IMG/VR virus record: IMGVR_UViG_2703718823_000009
Strand: one strand, 5' to 3'
Origin: a virus
Taxonomy: Duplodnaviria > Heunggongvirae > Uroviricota > Caudoviricetes
Length of the DNA stretch: 43,443 nucleotides
The notes beneath the pieces were generated by a model. It ran no database searches. It had not been told where the DNA came from and saw only the letters and a program-made list of their open reading frames with translations. Below, piece by piece: positions 37,344-43,443 of the stretch; position 1 is the first letter of the stretch; the number at the start of each line of letters is the position of its first letter. The position numbers and the translations under genes were made by a program.

Positions 37344-38754
37344 ATGTCCAAAAATGACCGAATGGTGGGCATCAGCCGCAGAACACTCGTTAAATCAACC
37401 GCGATAGGTTCTCTGGCGCTGGCTGCAGGCGGTTTTTCTTTACCGTTCACCCTGCGCAGTGCAGCGGCAGCGGTACAACAGGCCAGCGAAAAAGTGATCT
37501 GGGGTGCCTGTTCCGTCAACTGTGGTAGCCGCTGTGCACTTCGTCTACATGTTAAAGATAATGAAGTCACCTGGGTGGAAACTGACAACACCGGCAGCGA
37601 CGAGTATGGCAATCATCAAGTACGCGCCTGTTTGCGTGGTCGATCCATCCGTCGGCGTATTAATCATCCCGATCGCTTGAATTACCCAATGAAACGCGTG
37701 GGCAAACGCGGCGAAGGCAAATTCGAACGGATTAGCTGGGATGAAGCCCTGGATACTATCGCCAGTAGCCTGAAGAAAACCGTCGAACAATATGGCAATG
37801 AGGCTGTATATATTCAGTACTCTTCGGGGATCGTTGGCGGCAATATGACCCGCTCTTCGCCATCAGCCTCGGCGGTCAAACGCCTGATGAACTGCTACGG
37901 CGGTTCACTCAATCAGTATGGCTCCTACAGCACCGCGCAAATTTCCTGTGCCATGCCCTACACCTACGGCAGTAATGATGGCAACAGCACCACGGATATT
38001 GAAAACAGCAAGCTGGTCGTGATGTTTGGTAACAACCCGGCAGAAACCCGCATGAGCGGCGGTGGCATCACTTATCTTCTTGAAAAAGCGCGCGAGAAAT
38101 CGAACGCCAAAATGATTGCTATCGATCCGCGATATACCGATACGGCTGCTGGTCGTGAAGATGAATGGCTCCCTATTCGCCCGGGCACCGATGCCGCGCT
38201 GGTTGCGGGTATTGCCTGGGTATTGATTAACGAAAATCTCGTTGATCAACCTTTTCTCGATAAATACTGCGTCGGCTATGACGAAAAAACCTTACCCGCA
38301 GATGCACCCAAAAATAGTCACTATAAAGCCTATATTCTTGGTGAAGGTGATGATAACACAGCGAAAACGCCGCAGTGGGCTTCGCAAATTACCGGTATCC
38401 CGGTAGACCGTATCATCAAACTGGCGCGTGAAATTGGCACAGCAAAACCCGCTTATATCTGCCAGGGCTGGGGGCCGCAACGCCAGGCAAACGGCGAACT
38501 GACTGCACGCGCTATTGCTATGTTACCTATTTTGACGGGCAATGTCGGCATCAGCGGCGGAAATAGTGGCGCGCGTGAATCGACCTATACCATTACCATA
38601 GAACGCCTGCCGGTGCTGGATAATCCGGTCAAAATGTCAATCTCCTGCTTCAGCTGGACAGATGCTATCGATCATGGTCCGCAAATGACGGCAATCCGCG
38701 ACGGCGTCCGCGGCAAAGATAAACTGGATGTGCCCATTAAGTTCATCTGGAACT
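37344..38754 (+). pseudogene. ynfE: ynfE (Tat-exported molybdoenzyme) truncated after about 470 codons by insertion of foreign DNA
   Basis: Twin-arginine signal MSKNDRMVGISRRTLVK and DmsA-like sequence through ...PIKFIWN; the frame then runs 15 unrelated codons into the insert to a stop at 38801; full-length YnfE is about 800 aa (recalled). Confidence 0.8.
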
Positions 38755-38810
38755 TCAAGGACTTGAAGCGGACCCTTAGTAGGTCTGAGGTCCTGCATTG
38801 AGTCAAGGAC

Positions 38811-38843
38811 TTTGTGTCAGGCTTTGTGTCAGCCTTGTGTCAT
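38811..38843. repeat. short tandem repeat TTTGTGTCAG(G/C)C x3 near the element terminus
   Basis: ACTTTGTGTCAGGC TTTGTGTCAGCC TTGTGTCATT read directly. Confidence 0.6.
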
Positions 38844-38995
38844 TAGACGGGATGTCTAGACGGCTGGTCAGGACCCCGGTGGCCTCGGTCTGGACTTGAG
38901 GCGGGGCTATGGGGGAGAAGTCTGCTGGCTTAATGTATTAGATGGTCATTCACATTTTTCTGTCAGAAACCATCGGTCCCACTGTGAGTCCAAAC

Positions 38996-39151
38996 CTAAG
39001 CCCCCAGAAGCCCACCCACAGCCTTAGACAGAGTGTCGAATACATTCACACCGAGTCGACCGGAGAGGACCATATAGAGACCCACAGAGAGGAGCACGAG
39101 TTTATAGACCAGAGTCAGGAGGGACCTTAGGTCTGCGGAAGTCATGGACAT
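38996..39151 (-). CDS. small hydrophobic protein (51 aa) with strong RBS
   Basis: GGAGG 4 nt before ATG; MSMTSADLRSLLTLVYKLVLLSVGLYMVLSGRLGVNVFDTLSKAVGGLLGA; below ORF-track cutoff. Confidence 0.3.
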   Translation of the reverse strand: MSMTSADLRSLLTLVYKLVLLSVGLYMVLSGRLGVNVFDTLSKAVGGLLGA

Positions 39152-39204
39152 AAAGCCTCCTTCGTCTATTGTACTACTGCACTAGATAACTAGTACAAAA
39201 CAAA

Positions 39205-39229
39205 GGTCCAGACCATTGGTCCAGACCAT
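39205..39229. repeat. tandem repeat GGTCCAGACCAT x2
   Basis: GGTCCAGACCATTGGTCCAGACCAT read directly. Confidence 0.6.
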
Positions 39230-39389
39230 AGTTATCATGATGATTGGAACGATTGAACGGTAGGCACTTTACGTCTCACCCACTGTTCAGCTTCAGCCAG
39301 TGACCAGCATAGCCGCTTATAGACTCTGCGTGTCATCCAGATTGTTGCTTGATATCGTCCACCCTCCACAGGCTGTATAGATGTCTTAA

Positions 39390-39629
39390 TCACAGTGACA
39401 GGCCACCACCTGAAGTCCTGCTGATATTCAGTCCAGACTTACCTCTGCTCATGGTCTTACCTCCCTCGGTCTCCTGACCTTGGGTATCGACTACAGCTTG
39501 CTGAGCGTCATCTGGAGGAGCTACAGGAGGAGCTACAGGAGGCGGGACCGAAGCCCCACCTTGAGTCCCACCACCACCTGTCAGGCCCTTGGCGATGGAC
39601 CTGAAGCCTTTACTAATGCTCTTACCCAT
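39390..39629 (-). CDS. Gly/Pro-rich small protein (79 aa), low complexity
   Basis: ORF with internal PPVAPPVAPP repeat from a 12-bp tandem DNA repeat; no clear RBS. Confidence 0.3.
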   Translation of the reverse strand: MGKSISKGFRSIAKGLTGGGGTQGGASVPPPVAPPVAPPDDAQQAVVDTQGQETEGGKTMSRGKSGLNISRTSGGGLSL

Positions 39630-39634
39630 TGGTC

Positions 39635-40621
39635 TTACGCTTCGGTCTTGGTGAACTTCAGGCGTTTGACTACAGGCAGGACGGCAGTAGCTGAGCCAGT
39701 GCCCATCTTGATGGTCGTAGCAGCTTCAGCGACAACGTACACTTTACCGAGGATTTCCAAGTCGTGGGACTGAGAGTCGCCATCACGTGAAAGGACGACC
39801 GTAATATTCTCGCCATCGTGACGGAAGCAACCGAAGCTCAGAGCCGTGAAGCGTTTAGCCAGCATGAATACACCCTTGTCTTCACCGTTGTAGTAGGCGA
39901 TGTCTGTTCCCAGCATATCGACGATAGCGTCTTCACCGGAGAAGCCTTGCTTAGCAGCCAGACGGGACAGTGCTTTCAGTTGGCTCTCATGAGCGATAAT
40001 ACCGTAGTTAGACACCTCAGAACCGAAAGAAGGCTCTGTGTTCTCATACAGAGCGTCCATGATAGCGTCTGCCTTAGCGGTCAGGCTACCAGTCAGGACA
40101 GGAAGCTCTACGGTCTTCAGCAGCTTAGAGGATTCCAGAACGTCGACCATGTGAGCGTTGATGGTACGGACCACATTCTCACAGATGTTCATAGCGTCCT
40201 GCTGAAGTGTGCCCTGAGTGAATCCGGTGGATGACTTGGCGTCCCAGAGAGTGGTCTGCTCAGAGATGAGAATAGCCTGCTCGATTGGTTCGACCACGAT
40301 TTCTTGTCCAGACGGAATGGTCACGACTTCAGGTCGCTTGCCACCACGGACAGGAACGACCACAGAGCGGTCAGCCAGAGTGTGGGCAATGATTGGGGTC
40401 GGTAAGCTGTTACGGGTCGGCAGGACTTCTACAGGGAACGGGATGTTCTCTTGAGCGTCCTTAAGTACACCGTTCAGCATAGCCTTAACCGTCTTAGCTA
40501 ACTGGAGGGCGTAGACCTGCGGGTCAGCGTTAGTCGGCAGACCTTCATTGACCTGAATGTTGTCGGTATCGGTGATGCGTACTGGCTCAATGCCAAACTG
40601 GAAAGCGTCTTTAATCGTCAT
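39635..40621 (-). CDS. hypothetical protein (328 aa), largest gene of the cassette
   Basis: ATG at 40621 with TAGGAGA RBS 9 nt upstream; no family recognised by eye. Confidence 0.55.
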   Translation of the reverse strand: MTIKDAFQFGIEPVRITDTDNIQVNEGLPTNADPQVYALQLAKTVKAMLNGVLKDAQENIPFPVEVLPTRNSLPTPIIAHTLADRSVVVPVRGGKRPEVVTIPSGQEIVVEPIEQAILISEQTTLWDAKSSTGFTQGTLQQDAMNICENVVRTINAHMVDVLESSKLLKTVELPVLTGSLTAKADAIMDALYENTEPSFGSEVSNYGIIAHESQLKALSRLAAKQGFSGEDAIVDMLGTDIAYYNGEDKGVFMLAKRFTALSFGCFRHDGENITVVLSRDGDSQSHDLEILGKVYVVAEAATTIKMGTGSATAVLPVVKRLKFTKTEA

Positions 40622-40705
40622 AATAATCAATCTCCTAAATTAGTTTAAATACTGTGAGTCCTCAAAACTGAGGAGTCCCTAACATCGGGTCAGGGACTGT
40701 GTGTC

Positions 40706-41197
40706 TTATAAGCTGTCCAGCCAGTTACCGCCTGACTCAAGGTCAGCGACAATAGCGGCACGGGAGCGACCAGCGGAATGGGTTGCACTGCGGAGGTTCT
40801 CACCATAGGTCCGGCGTTCAGCTTTGACTTGTTCGCGGCGCTGTAGCTCTTTCTGCCACTCTGCATCGGTCATGTTCTCTTCACGCATACGCTCTTTCTG
40901 AGATGCCAGCTCTTTAGCGATACGCTCAGCCTCAGCTCGTTTGTTAAGCTGGCGGCGACCATAGGCGGTCATCAGGTCATTACTGAAGAAGTTGCCAATA
41001 GCTACGCCAGCTTCAGCCAGAGCTTCCAGTAACTCCATTGCCTCGCGGCTGGTAGACGGCAGGCCTGACAGGTAGCCCGGAATGAGGGTCTTGATAGCGA
41101 GCGACAGCGGATAGGGCTGACCGTCCAGACTCACAGTGTTTTCATAAAGGTTGATGTCGGTGACTGACAGCTTCCAGTTGTTGTTGTTGAACATCAT
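40706..41197 (-). CDS. hypothetical protein (163 aa) with charged helical C-terminal half
   Basis: ATGATG start with AGAGGAG RBS; C-terminus ...AERIAKELASQKERMREENMTDAEWQKELQRREQVKAERR... Confidence 0.5.
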   Translation of the reverse strand: MMFNNNNWKLSVTDINLYENTVSLDGQPYPLSLAIKTLIPGYLSGLPSTSREAMELLEALAEAGVAIGNFFSNDLMTAYGRRQLNKRAEAERIAKELASQKERMREENMTDAEWQKELQRREQVKAERRTYGENLRSATHSAGRSRAAIVADLESGGNWLDSL

Positions 41198-41293
41198 AGG
41201 TAATTCTCCTCTTGAGAGTTGAGACTATCGGTATCGCAGACGCAGTAGCGCCTACGGGTCTCCCCGCATCGGTCATCTCAAAAGGTTTTAAAA

Positions 41294-41461
41294 TTAGGCA
41301 GACAGTTTCATAGCGACCAGTTGCGCTATCAGCTCGTCTCGGGATTGGTGCTGGCGGGTCTCATCTTCCGGGTCTAGACCAAGCTCTCTGAGGAGGACTT
41401 CAGTCCGGTAGCCACGGTAACGGAGAGTCATGCGGCCCTCAGGTGTGCGTGGGTCAATCAT
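41294..41461 (-). CDS. small translationally coupled ORF (55 aa)
   Basis: ATG 1 nt after the KilA-N gene stop, preceded by AAGGGAGG; MIDPRTPEGRMTLRYRGYRTEVLLRELGLDPEDETRQHQSRDELIAQLVAMKLSA. Confidence 0.3.
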   Translation of the reverse strand: MIDPRTPEGRMTLRYRGYRTEVLLRELGLDPEDETRQHQSRDELIAQLVAMKLSA

Positions 41462-41462
41462 C

Positions 41463-42221
41463 TTAGAGTCCTCCCTTAGCGCACAGACGAACCAGCTCGA
41501 CCTTGTTGGACTTAAGCCACTCGTAACCCTTGGTGAGGACCTTAAGCCCCTCCTGACCGTTATAGTGGTTATCCTGAAGACGGTAATAGCCGTTCTCCAG
41601 ACCCTTAGGATTGAAGCTGGTCATCCAGCCACCTGACGAGATGTCAAATACAGGCTGTCCTCGACCGTCCAGCTTGCGACTATAGAAGGGATTAGCTATA
41701 CGCCCTGACTTCAATACGGCATTAAGAGCCTTGGCTGATACCAGCTTTGTACCTAACCTGAAGTCGAGATTCTTAAGACACTCTGTCAGGGTGTGGCCCT
41801 GCTTCGGGTTATCCAGCTTTTCCAGCCAGTTACGGGCTATAGGCTTGAGACCCTTAAGTTCCTTGGAGTCCTGCGCCAGCGCCTTAGCTTCCGACACTTT
41901 GTCGTTACGTAAAGCGATGAAAGCACGGATGACCTTAAGGTAGAAATCAGGTGAGACCCACATCGCATAGGCAATAGCCGCCTCTTCAGTAGCCCATGTC
42001 CCCGGAGTCGAACCACCATGAGCAACATGCAAATTTGCATCTTGGTCAAGAAGCGTCCTGACGCTAGAACGCCACTGACCCGGCTCCTTAGCAGATGGAA
42101 GCTCAAGCTCTTTATGTAGCTCGTTCAGGTTCCACATACGGTCCTGATTACAGGCCCAGTGATAGCCGTCAACGATGACAGGAAGAACTACTTCATGCTT
42201 CATTAAGGGTTGAGTTGACAT
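41463..42221 (-). CDS. KilA-N domain protein (possible antirepressor/regulator)
   Basis: N-terminal ...GTWATEEAAIAYAMWVSPDFYLKVIRAF... matches the KilA-N signature as recalled; AAGGAG RBS 9 nt before ATG. Confidence 0.6.
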   Translation of the reverse strand: MSTQPLMKHEVVLPVIVDGYHWACNQDRMWNLNELHKELELPSAKEPGQWRSSVRTLLDQDANLHVAHGGSTPGTWATEEAAIAYAMWVSPDFYLKVIRAFIALRNDKVSEAKALAQDSKELKGLKPIARNWLEKLDNPKQGHTLTECLKNLDFRLGTKLVSAKALNAVLKSGRIANPFYSRKLDGRGQPVFDISSGGWMTSFNPKGLENGYYRLQDNHYNGQEGLKVLTKGYEWLKSNKVELVRLCAKGGL

Positions 42222-42568
42222 ATCGTTGTACTCCTTTTGTTATGCCTCCTGAAGTCACACCCTGAAAGCCTACTCAAGCCCCCAACGATAGGGAGACTCA
42301 CAGGCAACAGGAGACATACAGAAAGACTTGAGGTAATAAGGTCGTGTGAAGACCATGTTAACTTTTTCCTACTGGCTACTAGATAACTAGCGTGTCTCCA
42401 TATGTATAAAGGCGGGACCGCATGTCAGGACGAGCTGTAAGGACTTCCAGATGGTGAGCGGTGATAAACTTAAGCCAATGAGTAGTGAGTAGACGAGCTA
42501 CTAACAGATGACTGAAGAACGCTAACGAGCTGGAGGTCATACAGGAGGTCTGACAGAGGCGGAAGCAG

Positions 42569-42591
42569 GTCTCCTATAGTGATAGTTTAGG
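42569..42591 (-). promoter_or_regulatory. phage single-subunit RNAP promoter-like motif P2
   Basis: Minus strand CCTAAACTATCACTATA|GGAGAC (-17 to +6); compare SP6 ATTTAGGTGACACTATAGAAG and T7 TAATACGACTCACTATAGGGAGA. Confidence 0.5.
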
Positions 42592-42596
42592 GTCTG

Positions 42597-42619
42597 GTCC
42601 CCTATAGTGAGTGCTTATT
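42597..42619 (-). promoter_or_regulatory. phage single-subunit RNAP promoter-like motif P1
   Basis: Minus strand AATAAGCACTCACTATA|GGGGAC; positions -10 to +3 identical to T7 consensus (ACTCACTATAGGG), -11/-12 differ. Confidence 0.5.
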
Positions 42620-43082
42620 CCATCATCCCTTTATCACAGAGCACCTTCTTCATGTTCACAGAGGTAGCCTGAAGTACAGAGTTAACGTGGCGTAGGTAGC
42701 GAGGAGACGGGGAGCGACCCGTGATTGCCGTGTAGGAGATGTCAGTATTGCGGGAGAAGATATCGTTGGTGCCATATAAGGCAGCGAACAGGTAGGCCTT
42801 GGAGACCGGGAGTCCCACGCTGTTAGAGAGACCTGAAGGACGTGAGAGTCCTGTAAACACATCGTCTGCCCATGGGTAGGCCTCAGCAAGCTGCGTATAG
42901 GAGAGACACCCAGTCTCAATCAGCCACAGCCTCACAGACCGATTGTCGATGACCACAGGCGGCTTACCTGTACGGGCCTTAGGTTCATCATAGGTCGGCG
43001 CTGGTAGCTGCTCATGGTCGAGGTCTCCACCGAAGAAGGCCTCATTGTCGGACTCTGAGTAGCATTGAATTGTAATAGCCAT
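42615..43082 (-). CDS. hypothetical protein (155 aa), first gene of the minus-strand cassette
   Basis: ATG at 43082 with AGAGGAGG RBS 7 nt upstream; P3 motif 80 nt upstream. Confidence 0.5.
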   Translation of the reverse strand: MAITIQCYSESDNEAFFGGDLDHEQLPAPTYDEPKARTGKPPVVIDNRSVRLWLIETGCLSYTQLAEAYPWADDVFTGLSRPSGLSNSVGLPVSKAYLFAALYGTNDIFSRNTDISYTAITGRSPSPRYLRHVNSVLQATSVNMKKVLCDKGMME

Positions 43083-43156
43083 GGATGGGCCTCCTCTTAA
43101 GGTTGGCTACTTGCAGTGGGTAGCAGCGGTTTCGGTTAGATGGAGGACAGGCGTGT

Positions 43157-43179
43157 CTCTCCTAGGGTGATAGTTAAGG
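43157..43179 (-). promoter_or_regulatory. phage single-subunit RNAP promoter-like motif P3
   Basis: Minus strand CCTTAACTATCACCCTA|GGAGAG; shares an extended 28-bp match with P2. Confidence 0.4.
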
Positions 43180-43237
43180 GTCTGAGCCCAAACTTCCGAA
43201 GGTGAGGGATTATTGTAAGATACTGAAAGCTAATGGA

Positions 43238-43324
43238 AAGTTGGAGGGACCTGAGTTTAGGACGCAGTTTAAATAAGACACCAAGTTGGAGGACCTGAGT
43301 TTAGGGTGCAGTTTAAATAAGACC
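43238..43324. repeat. tandem direct repeat, 2 units of about 44 bp (iteron-like)
   Basis: AAGTTGGAGGGACCTGAGTTTAGGACGCAGTTTAAATAAGACACC followed by AAGTTGGAGGACCTGAGTTTAGGGTGCAGTTTAAATAAGACCAC. Confidence 0.7.
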
Positions 43325-43386
43325 ACAGACAGACTTAGAGTCGGACAGCCGAAGGCGAACCAGTGGGCCTATAGTCAGGAGGGATT

Positions 43387-43443
43387 ATGATTATTATCAC
43401 CCTCCATAACTTCAGTCGTAAGCGACTCGTCAGAACCGTATTG
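43387..43443 (+). CDS. start of a divergent plus-strand gene (partial)
   Basis: AGGAGGG RBS 3-4 nt before ATG at 43387; MIIITLHNFSRKRLVRTV... open to window end. Confidence 0.3.
   Translation, partial: MIIITLHNFSRKRLVRTVL

Follow-up and report, generated by a model that had tools for sequence, protein, structure and literature searches.

The window analysed here is a stretch of 43,443 nt. Within it, a repeat-rich segment at 38755-39389 forms the left end (attL) of a 6,586-bp (6.6-kb) integrative element inserted in the Escherichia coli gene ynfE. The absence of a long ORF noted for this segment in the first-pass annotation was confirmed, but the truncated ynfE frame extends to 38801 and a 52-aa ORF overlaps the right edge. 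Features of this end of the element are as follows.

38744..38754, plus strand: att core, attL copy; the 11-bp CATCTGGAACT, final ynfE bases preceding the element
38755..38815, no strand: att arm adjoining the core; contains palindrome TTCAAGGACTTGAA and the first GGACTTGAAGCGG
38811..38843, plus strand: three TTGTGTCA(G/T) units (TRF: period 11, 2.9 copies), probably integrase arm-type sites
38816..38942, minus strand: terminal-repeat-like stretch, with homology to the initial ~115 nt of the phage terminal repeat and a predicted start TCTAATAC at 38942
38943..38985, minus strand: equivalent of the final unique bases that precede the terminal repeat in phages (right-end cut region), within the alignment to the BHUENT8 junction
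38996..39151, minus strand: 51-aa hydrophobic ORF behind GAAGGAGG, positional analogue of T7-like gene 19.5
39181..39194, no strand: palindrome ACTAGTTATCTAGT, between the terminator and the small ORF
39195..39229, minus strand: intrinsic terminator from a terminator scan, a hairpin with a 10-bp stem built from two GGTCCAGACCAT units (39205-39216 and 39218-39229) and followed by UUUGUUUUGU
39235..39393, minus strand: 52-aa ORF, an insertion confined to some variants, with no homologue found

The boundaries of the element were established from the complete copy in UMNK88 (L001). The CATCTGGAACT 11-mer stands at both junctions (21445 and 28031, 6,586 bp apart), and joining the flanks through a single copy of it yields an intact ynfE at 100% identity. 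In 5,115 E. coli genomes the empty site is contiguous (100% identity); about 118-168 carry the element. An identical core at both junctions and an empty site elsewhere characterize a site-specific integrative element. Position 38755 is the first base past the att core and therefore the true element boundary. A 540-aa tyrosine integrase is encoded at the far end of the element, beyond the window (Pfam Phage_integrase, E = 1.7e-14; PHROG 1, E = 4.7e-43). No excisionase or helper-sensing regulator was recognised in the element, and exact searches of IMG/VR and JGI metagenome contigs for the attP junction returned no match. Logan assembly contigs of approximately element size were considered as free circles and rejected; they are integrated copies cut at repeats. 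The accessible text on TIGER (PMC7192596) places ynfE among genes with integrity controlled by an integrative element. The target gene is identical to ours; the text searched from that source records the insertion alone, with no link to T7-like phages. The element accounts for ~120-170 disruptions of ynfE in E. coli that are now labelled 'hypothetical protein'.

Every short repeat listed in the first-pass annotation was recovered. These comprise GGACTTGAAGCGG at 38759-38771, GGACTTGAGGCGG at 38892-38904, TTTGTGTCAG at 38811-38820 and 38823-38832 with an imperfect third copy (CTTGTGTCAT) at 38834-38843, the two GGTCCAGACCAT units, and the 13-mer ACTAGATAACTAG at 39181 and 42378. Counts alone modestly exceed chance. 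TTGTGTCAG has two exact copies against 0.33 expected, with at least two reached in 5 of 100 shuffles, and ACTAGATAACTAG has three matches at two or fewer mismatches against 0.39 expected, equalled by one of 100 shuffles. Another exact 13-mer repeat (family D16) arises by chance in the element. Such window-only counts, and the chance 13-mer, are what an explanation of the repeats as functionless accidents of a non-coding spacer can draw on. That explanation is almost certainly wrong, being already contradicted by comparative data: the repeats are conserved across relatives and recur at the other end, part of the segment has homology to phage ends, and the terminator is conserved in structure. 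It is the comparison across relatives that makes the repeats real.

Comparison of the two ends, as the first-pass annotation had proposed, revealed related sequence at both. A 20-mer, TTTGTGTCAGCCTTGTGTCA, containing two TTGTGTCA units has an exact copy at the far end, inside what is annotated as the 5' coding region of int (L001 21524 and 27854), and the GGACTTGAGG motif recurs there as well. TTGTGTCA units occur at both ends of all relatives with ynfE-type integration and are absent from the ends of tRNA-Gly-type relatives. Because the TTGTGTCAG repeats are matched at the opposite end only where the integrase is of the ynfE type, they are probably arm sites of the element's long tyrosine integrase. 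The core-proximal arm (38755..38815) is almost invariant in six ynfE-type copies, except for one 21-nt insertion, and in the reconstructed attP an inverted GGACTTGAAG lies across the core on the opposite side. GGACTTGAGGCGG at 38892, previously grouped with these repeats, is not an att repeat and belongs to the terminal-repeat-like stretch.

The rest of the element within the window carries the following genes and signals.

39390..39629, minus strand: 79-aa homologue of T7 gp7.3, a virion assembly / adsorption protein (PHROG 1320, E = 1.8e-11)
39635..40630, minus strand: 331-aa major capsid protein with a predicted HK97 fold (AlphaFold2 model and Foldseek)
40706..41197, minus strand: 163-aa protein conserved with the capsid gene; no Pfam or PHROG family match
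41294..41461, minus strand: 55-aa core protein, in all relatives; no Pfam or PHROG family match
41463..42221, minus strand: KilA-N domain protein in a variable slot (Pfam PF04383, E = 1.3e-9)
42378..42390, no strand: second copy of the ACTAGATAACTAG 13-mer, in the leader of the KilA-N gene
42568..42616, minus strand: two tandem promoters for a phage RNA polymerase, AAGCACTCACTATAGGGGACC and TAAACTATCACTATAGGAGACC
42615..43082, minus strand: 155-aa protein (from the ORF list)
43156..43177, minus strand: degenerate phage-type promoter TTAACTATCACCCTAGGAGAGA; relatives have TTATCACTATAGGG at this position
43378..43405, minus strand: 28-nt hairpin common to the right end of T7-like phages; one mismatch in the window copy, in the loop

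The only functions recognised in the element are those of the integrase, the KilA-N domain protein, the capsid protein, and the gp7.3 homologue. No replication, terminase, portal, or tail genes were identified among its ORFs by Pfam or PHROG. The gp7.3 homologue is 40% identical to the protein of phage Peacock (E = 6e-14) and matches Pfam VirionAssem_T7 at E = 0.0057, under the curated cut-off; the remaining element proteins have no similarity to the Peacock proteome. For the 331-aa protein, AlphaFold2 gave a model with a pLDDT of 85 from a 38-sequence alignment and 41 from a shallow alignment. Foldseek returned 222 PDB and 202 viral-model matches at E ≤ 1e-3, and among the matches listed are phage capsid and head proteins, encapsulin shells, and one 'prohead protease' entry. 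The modelled fold identifies the protein as an HK97-fold capsid protein. No T7 likeness is detectable in its sequence. Neither profile searching against PDB sequences nor comparing profiles with the Peacock capsid protein gave a match. The 163-aa protein was present in 13 of 13 relatives tested, with 87-96% identity in 12 and 62% in L026, and is possibly a scaffold. Across five genera, complete copies of the element are uniform at 6.1-6.9 kb, or 7.6 kb in L016, with core genes intact and accessory genes swapped; the KilA-N slot, for example, is filled by other genes in relatives.

Between these genes and the att arm lie the terminator, the palindrome, and two small ORFs. The paired GGTCCAGACCAT units were previously likened to repeats near T7 genome ends. 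Instead, on the coding strand, they pair as the arms of a terminator hairpin, which folds at -15.5 kcal/mol (z = -4.1). A hairpin and U-tract occur at this position in all relatives, the stems differing, and identify it as an intrinsic terminator. The slot of the adjacent palindrome is occupied by ACTAGTNATCTAGT in L001, L003, L004, L016, L019, L021, L023, and L024, which include distant relatives, and this sequence is absent from phage Peacock. Sigma-70 promoter candidates around the palindrome were unconvincing and no better than those in shuffled sequence, and an Rfam scan of 38600-43443 gave nothing meaningful. The 52-aa ORF had looked AP2-like by eye; this was dropped when comparison with a relative's AP2 protein and with phages gave no match.

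The 51-aa ORF was found as first described, on the minus strand behind GAAGGAGG. Its frame is retained in 29 variants through in-frame indels, and this slot holds a hydrophobic ORF of 26 aa in other relatives. One membrane span is predicted (best 19-residue hydropathy window, 2.14). The ORF is a conserved, predicted single-pass membrane peptide in the slot of phage gene 19.5. Agreement with T7 gp19.5 is limited to position, size, and hydrophobicity; the Peacock gp19.5-like protein gave no BLASTP alignment, Pfam and PHROG gave no family match, and tblastn against the phage collection gave a chance-level match only (E = 9). Of the original suggestion of a membrane or lysis peptide, the membrane half stands, and the lysis half found no link, no family match, and no endolysin or spanin nearby.

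On the minus strand, 38985 to 38816 shares homology with the concatemer junction of T7-like (Kayfunavirus-type) phages. Both parts of a T7-group junction are represented, namely the right unique end (its last bases) and the first ~115 nt of the terminal repeat. A blastn search of 2.3 Gb of phage records matched the terminal-repeat-like stretch at 73.8% identity over ~100 nt (E = 4e-4); the matched records are ~40-kb phages of enterobacterial hosts, in which a K1F-type junction is also present. Local alignment scores were 106 for the BHUENT8 junction (25.3±3.2 when shuffled) and 59 for the Peacock junction (24.9±3.2 when shuffled). The window-type pre-repeat (GACCGATGGTTTCTGACAGAAAAATGTGAATGACC) had no match in the phage collection, where the repeat-like part alone matches, at 74%. 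In sister elements L007, L008, and L010, 31 of 32 positions match CGATGAGTTTTGGACCAAAAGTTTGAGACC, a sequence whose end coincides with the repeat boundary in K1F, Peacock, and 220 phage records.

This junction mimic lies 3' of the capsid gene in eight of eight relatives tested, from four genera (z = 9.6-26 versus shuffles). Those eight use either of two integrases (30% identical) and differing att sites. The mimic is kept whichever integrase and att site are used and is therefore a module separate from att. Since the repeat-like stretch overlaps an integrase arm, its conservation could partly reflect integration. A putative right boundary of the repeat is found across the att core, where CTATCTGTATCAG is identical to the 13 nt at Peacock 178-190, the repeat boundary of that phage (z about 5.5 with flanks). 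Among complete ynfE-type copies it was located in four, always 136 nt from that end; L013 is an exception. No counterpart after the core, or split junction, was seen in tRNA-Gly-type relatives. Because this boundary, with its candidate polymerase pause motif, is across the att core in ynfE-type elements, a complete junction may exist only after excision. The original proposal of an element end or a packaging/att region with a T7 flavour is borne out by the duplicated core, the empty sites, and the T7-like junction homology.

Further resemblance to phages was found in the promoters and the right-end hairpin. All three promoter-like matches in the 43-kb window fall in the element and on its coding strand, and the promoters and junction mimic share one strand, with polarity as in the phage. 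In UMNK88, the copy of the second tandem promoter is identical at 24 of 24 positions to the Kayfunavirus late promoter directly 5' of the Peacock major capsid gene. The UMNK88 hairpin is likewise identical (28/28) to Peacock 38757-38784, between the right-end promoter and the gp19.5-like gene, and 131 phage records match it. In phages the hairpin adjoins the junction; here it is 4.4 kb from the mimic when integrated, and would be ~1.9 kb from it across attP if excised. A 37-nt match at the hairpin was the sole result of a high-identity search of the element against the phage collection; the other phage homologies required a sensitive mode and direct alignment.

The att function of this end is certain, and the repeat-like stretch overlaps the arm repeats. 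It could be argued from this that the segment is an att arm only, that it resembles T7-like ends because it descends from an integrating T7-like phage, and that the element is a decayed prophage remnant no longer packaged. Temperate T7-like phages are known (PMC10134795), and the IMG/VR and JGI metagenome contigs yielded no element in excised form. We consider such decay unlikely, given the uniform size and intact core genes across five genera with exchange of accessory genes, the retention of the mimic beside two unrelated att sites, and a capsid protein without detectable T7 likeness in sequence. Some copies also have near-perfect matches to phage junctions, promoters, and hairpin, which are therefore recent.

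A T7-like junction mimic beside an att site marks the element as a probable, apparently undescribed satellite of T7-like phages. Most virion, replication, and lysis genes are absent from it, and a helper-identical promoter, a hairpin, and the junction mimic are present, as in a satellite. We give a probability of about 65% to the reading that it is a capsid-encoding integrative satellite of virulent T7-like (Kayfunavirus-type) phages, with an attL that would combine integration with DNA maturation and packaging. The insertion, homologies, promoters, and capsid fold are read from sequence, and from them we infer excision on infection, replication, cutting, and packaging. The integration part would consist of the core CATCTGGAACT, the core-proximal palindrome, and the TTGTGTCAG repeats on both arms. 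The maturation and packaging part, on the minus strand, would run from the terminator hairpin through the small membrane-peptide gene to the mimic of the helper's concatemer junction.

On infection, the helper RNA polymerase would fire the phage-type promoters of the element. Through those promoters the T7 replisome would copy the excised circle into concatemers; this replisome is proposed because the element is without replication genes of its own. Transcription would pass the terminator into the junction mimic, where the helper terminase would cut and then fill capsids made of the element's own HK97 protein. These capsids would be fitted with the portal, core, and tail of the helper.

Phage-polymerase promoters would also make expression infection-specific in an anti-phage island, in which they switch on toxic or interfering cargo and the mimic serves as a terminase decoy with no role in mobilisation. 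The KilA-N protein, in its variable slot and with a weak PADLOC candidate match, and the small membrane peptide could be such cargo, and host protection is frequent among known satellites (PMC10803314). Defence alone poorly explains a capsid gene, a gp7.3 homologue, an integrase, and an att site, and interference and mobilisation are compatible in known satellites. We therefore hold a purely defensive island to be very unlikely.

Extended to all relatives, the satellite interpretation is one towards which we lean slightly. The 6-7-kb islands in ynfE or tRNA-Gly of E. coli, Shigella, Citrobacter, Leclercia, Enterobacter, and Buttiauxella would form an undescribed satellite family, switched on and replicated via helper-polymerase promoters, which in some members would be tandem and of two specificities, matured at the junction mimic, and packaged in small satellite-encoded HK97 capsids. 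No satellites of T7-like phages were found described in the literature searched. T7-like phages are the textbook case of a strictly lytic life style, and therapy and biotechnology make wide use of them. If the interpretation is true, these islands would be the smallest capsid-encoding mobile elements known in tailed-phage systems and a route for strictly virulent podophages to move chromosomal islands among enterobacteria. Compact, at about seven genes, they would also suit work on T7 DNA maturation signals, on the control of capsid size, and on specificity between satellite and helper, the last approachable through swappable pre-repeat cassettes and dual promoters.

The gene set of cfPICIs includes portal, connectors, and terminase; they measure ~10-15 kb, and their helpers are temperate phages. 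Our element differs in its size of 6.6 kb, in being without portal, connectors, or terminase by Pfam or PHROG, and in having T7-type promoters and a junction mimic. It does not classify as a PICI or cfPICI, as a primase/helicase replication module, a small terminase, and a full head-morphogenesis module are absent by Pfam/PHROG. The likeness is that of integrative satellites with their own HK97 capsid protein that do not remodel that of the helper. According to the accessible text of bioRxiv 10.1101/2022.09.08.507074, cfPICIs encode everything for making and filling their own capsids and borrow tails only.

PICMIs, satellites of virulent Vibrio phages, resemble the element in their very small size, minimal gene set, and virulent helpers. 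The available portion of PMC10803314 describes them as located beside fis, with three core excision/replication proteins and without capsid-remodelling genes, and as packaged as concatemers in helper capsids. By that description the element is not a PICMI: it lies in ynfE or tRNA-Gly, has no recognised replication gene, and carries a capsid gene. Of similar size are the 'twilight viruses' (~7 kb; bioRxiv 10.1101/2025.06.18.659913), integrative contigs which likewise have an HK97 capsid gene and an integrase without portal, terminase, or tail. Their contigs differ in having the replication genes RepA and helicase and no named helper, and neither 'Escherichia' nor 'T7-like' appears in the text of that preprint.

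At the T7 junction, a pause of the polymerase-lysozyme complex initiates maturation, and the pause-type motif is ATCTGT (PMC3276506). A candidate ATCTGT of this type stands at the element's putative repeat boundary, but across the att core, which in ynfE-type copies appears to interrupt the repeat-like stretch; in this variant that stretch has only about 74% identity to known phages. [quoted passage not shown] The element shares with these T7-transducible plasmids, or T7 'phagemids', the phage-polymerase promoters and a junction-like pre-repeat/terminal-repeat sequence in equal polarity. Unlike them it is natural and chromosomally integrated, with its own integrase, capsid protein, and gp7.3 homologue. 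If our interpretation is true, the element, with its helper-polymerase promoters and junction copy, would be a natural equivalent of the T7 phagemid built in the laboratory.

The window is E. coli chromosome in which the ynfE reading frame is disrupted at 38754/38755. Among 5,426 complete E. coli genomes, 118 carry the same junction (coverage of at least 80%), and diverged forms of the element end were found in 168 genomes. The copy in UMNK88 (L001) is 99.5% identical to the window over the element end, and its 6,586-bp insert is flanked by the direct repeat CATCTGGAACT (L001 21445 and 28031). Rejoining the flanks via a single copy of this core gave 100% identity to intact ynfE, which is contiguous in 5,115 genomes. 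The element is a precise site-specific insertion. All of its genes are on the minus strand, and a 540-aa tyrosine integrase is encoded at its far end, outside the window. In PMC7192596, ynfE is among the genes listed as interrupted by an integrative element. One element copy is interrupted by IS100 (L009 11750-13551). A Qin-like lambdoid prophage region beside rspAB-ynfABCD, placed by synteny with the UMNK88 annotation, lies in the left three quarters of the window (1 to ~32000) and is unrelated to the element end.

The first-pass annotation described short repeats and a 51-aa ORF at this end, and all were confirmed in place; the third unit of the TTTGTGTCAG repeats is an imperfect copy, CTTGTGTCAT. 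Within the window alone, TTGTGTCAG has two copies versus 0.33 expected (equaled in 5 of 100 shuffles), and the count of the 13-mer at 39181 and 42378 was matched in 1 of 100 shuffles. A further exact 13-mer repeat arises by chance within the same element. Repeat counts in the window are thus only modestly above chance, and the case therefore depends on comparison with other sequences. The earlier reading of an element end or packaging/att region is supported by the precise ynfE insertion and by homology to a T7-like junction. In minus-strand order, from the gp7.3-like gene to ynfE, the features are as follows.

52-aa ORF, minus strand, in some variants only
Two GGTCCAGACCAT units, read on the minus strand as GGUCUGGACC-AAU-GGUCUGGACC, then UUUGUUUUGU
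Palindrome ACTAGTTATCTAGT, between the terminator and the 51-aa ORF
51-aa ORF, following the palindrome on the minus strand
38985-38816, minus strand, junction mimic, aligning to the T7-like last unique bases and the first ~115 nt of the terminal repeat
TTGTGTCAG units, GGACTTGAAG palindrome, and core, at the ynfE-proximal end

The junction mimic, which resembles a phage concatemer junction, had alignment scores of 106 to BHUENT8 and 59 to Peacock, both T7-like phages, compared to 25±3.2 for shuffles. With blastn, the window itself gave a match at E = 4e-4 in a search of 2.3 Gb of phage DNA. One repeat from the first-pass annotation, GGACTTGAGGCGG, falls within the mimic and is equivalent to CTTCAAGTCCAGACC in the phage repeat, and the left end of the phage, TCTCACAG, is predicted to correspond to TCTAATAC, which starts at 38942. 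Three sister elements (L007, L008, and L010) contain CGATGAGTTTTGGACCAAAAGTTAGAGACC, a 31/32 match to the repeat-abutting bases in K1F, Peacock, and 220 phage records. The cognate phage of the window-type pre-repeat was absent from the phage collection searched (2.3 Gb).

Relatives occur in Shigella, Leclercia, Buttiauxella, Citrobacter, and Enterobacter. Their integrases are of two types sharing just 30% identity, and the second type inserts at the 3' terminus of a tRNA-Gly gene (core TCCCTTCGCCCGCTCCA). The junction mimic was found downstream of the capsid gene in 8 of 8 relatives tested, from four genera (z = 9.6-26), and its retention across integrase types indicates a separate module. Every ynfE-type copy has TTGTGTCAG units at each of its ends, and tRNA-Gly-type copies have them at neither. 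The units are therefore associated with the integrase and are best read as putative arm-type sites. Because they lie inside the stretch aligning with the phage repeat, repeat sequence may have been co-opted to form them. Shigella flexneri SFBU1023 has two family members, one ynfE-type and one tRNA-Gly-type (L013 and L019).

The GGTCCAGACCAT pair is an intrinsic terminator, because it forms a 10-bp hairpin, including two G-U pairs, followed by a U-tract (-15.5 kcal/mol, z = -4.1). A hairpin and U-tract are kept at this position in every relative, with differing stem sequences. The palindrome is missing in some close variants, and ACTAGTNATCTAGT was found in its exact slot at eight loci, some of them in Citrobacter and in elements of the tRNA-Gly type; the palindrome is therefore not due to chance. 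The 51-aa ORF has one predicted membrane span, a variable C-terminal tail, and 39 close homologues, with the frame kept via in-frame indels in the 28 aligned. No homologues were found beyond the element family, and an unrelated 26-aa hydrophobic ORF fills this slot in other variants. When window 38943-39151 was compared to L007-L010, the pre-repeat and small hydrophobic ORF co-varied as a two-state cassette (window/L011 type versus K1F-like type) between a conserved att arm and terminator, a pattern resembling the swapping of a helper-specific module.

Promoters, a hairpin, and gene content support a putative T7-like helper.

42568-42589, minus strand, phage-polymerase promoter TAAACTATCACTATAGGAGACC
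42568-42616, minus strand, pair formed with a second promoter, GCACTCACTATAGGGGA, 7 nt upstream of the first
43156-43177, minus strand, degenerate phage-polymerase promoter
43378-43405, 28-nt hairpin common to 131 phage records

These three promoters are the sole phage-promoter matches in the 43-kb window. The UMNK88 promoter CTAAACTATCACTATAGGGAGACC has 24/24 identity to the promoter directly upstream of the Peacock capsid gene. Tandem promoters in relatives have two specificities (ACCCTCACTATAGGG beside AACTATCACTATAGGG), and pairs with differing specificity regions, GCACTCACTATAGG or ACCCTCACTATAGG beside AACTATCACTATAGG, were identified at window 42568-42616 and in three related loci (L014, L015, and L021), where they precede the capsid gene by ~1.9-2.6 kb. 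This dual specificity suggests that the elements could be responsive to at least two groups of T7-like helpers. The hairpin, located in phages between the right-end promoter and a gp19.5-like gene, matches Peacock at 28/28 positions in UMNK88 and has one loop mismatch in the window. A tandem duplication of a 44-bp unit (43238-43323, 1.9 copies, 92% match) separates the hairpin from the first promoter-like site; in UMNK88 the unit is single. A 79-aa ORF is a gp7.3 homologue. Its product matches phage gp7.3 at both termini and varies centrally among variants, and the gene contains 2.4 copies of the 12-nt unit GGAGGAGCTACA (39514-39542), encoding repeated VAPP. A 331-aa protein has a modeled HK97 capsid fold, with no sequence similarity detected to the Peacock capsid protein. 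Using Pfam and PHROG, no genes for replication, terminase, portal, tail, or lysis functions were recognized in the element.

T7 origins are phage promoters with an AT-rich stretch directly after them. T7 replicates plasmids that contain its origin, pac site, and terminal repeat, and also packages and transduces them (PMC13236587, citing Chung & Hinkle 1990). Maturation begins when the polymerase-lysozyme complex pauses at the junction (PMC3276506). The element would carry natural equivalents of the plasmid's T7 parts in a single polarity. At the other end of ynfE-type copies, the right-boundary motif of the repeat, CTATCTGTATCAG, which is identical to Peacock 178-190, is found 136 nt past the att core. 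This position is constant in the four complete ynfE-type copies where the motif was locatable, but does not hold in L013. Because CTATCTGTATCAG lies across the core from the mimic, a complete junction may perhaps arise solely after circular excision or concatemer formation. The split-junction match is weak (z ~5.5) and was not seen in tRNA-Gly-type elements. The attP junction was not found in the public contigs searched, and element-sized contigs considered as the excised form were integrated copies. The element's own capsid protein and ~6.6-kb genome suggest small capsids, estimated at roughly T=3 by scaling from P2 and P4; alternatively, hexamers (39.5 kb) would be packaged into helper-sized heads.

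No satellite of T7-like phages was found in the literature searched. The element lacks the defining features of P4, and those of PICI/cfPICI and PICMI as given in bioRxiv 10.1101/2022.09.08.507074 and PMC10803314, respectively. It may be likened to a natural T7 phagemid and to a capsid-forming satellite, and it most likely represents a new family of phage satellites.
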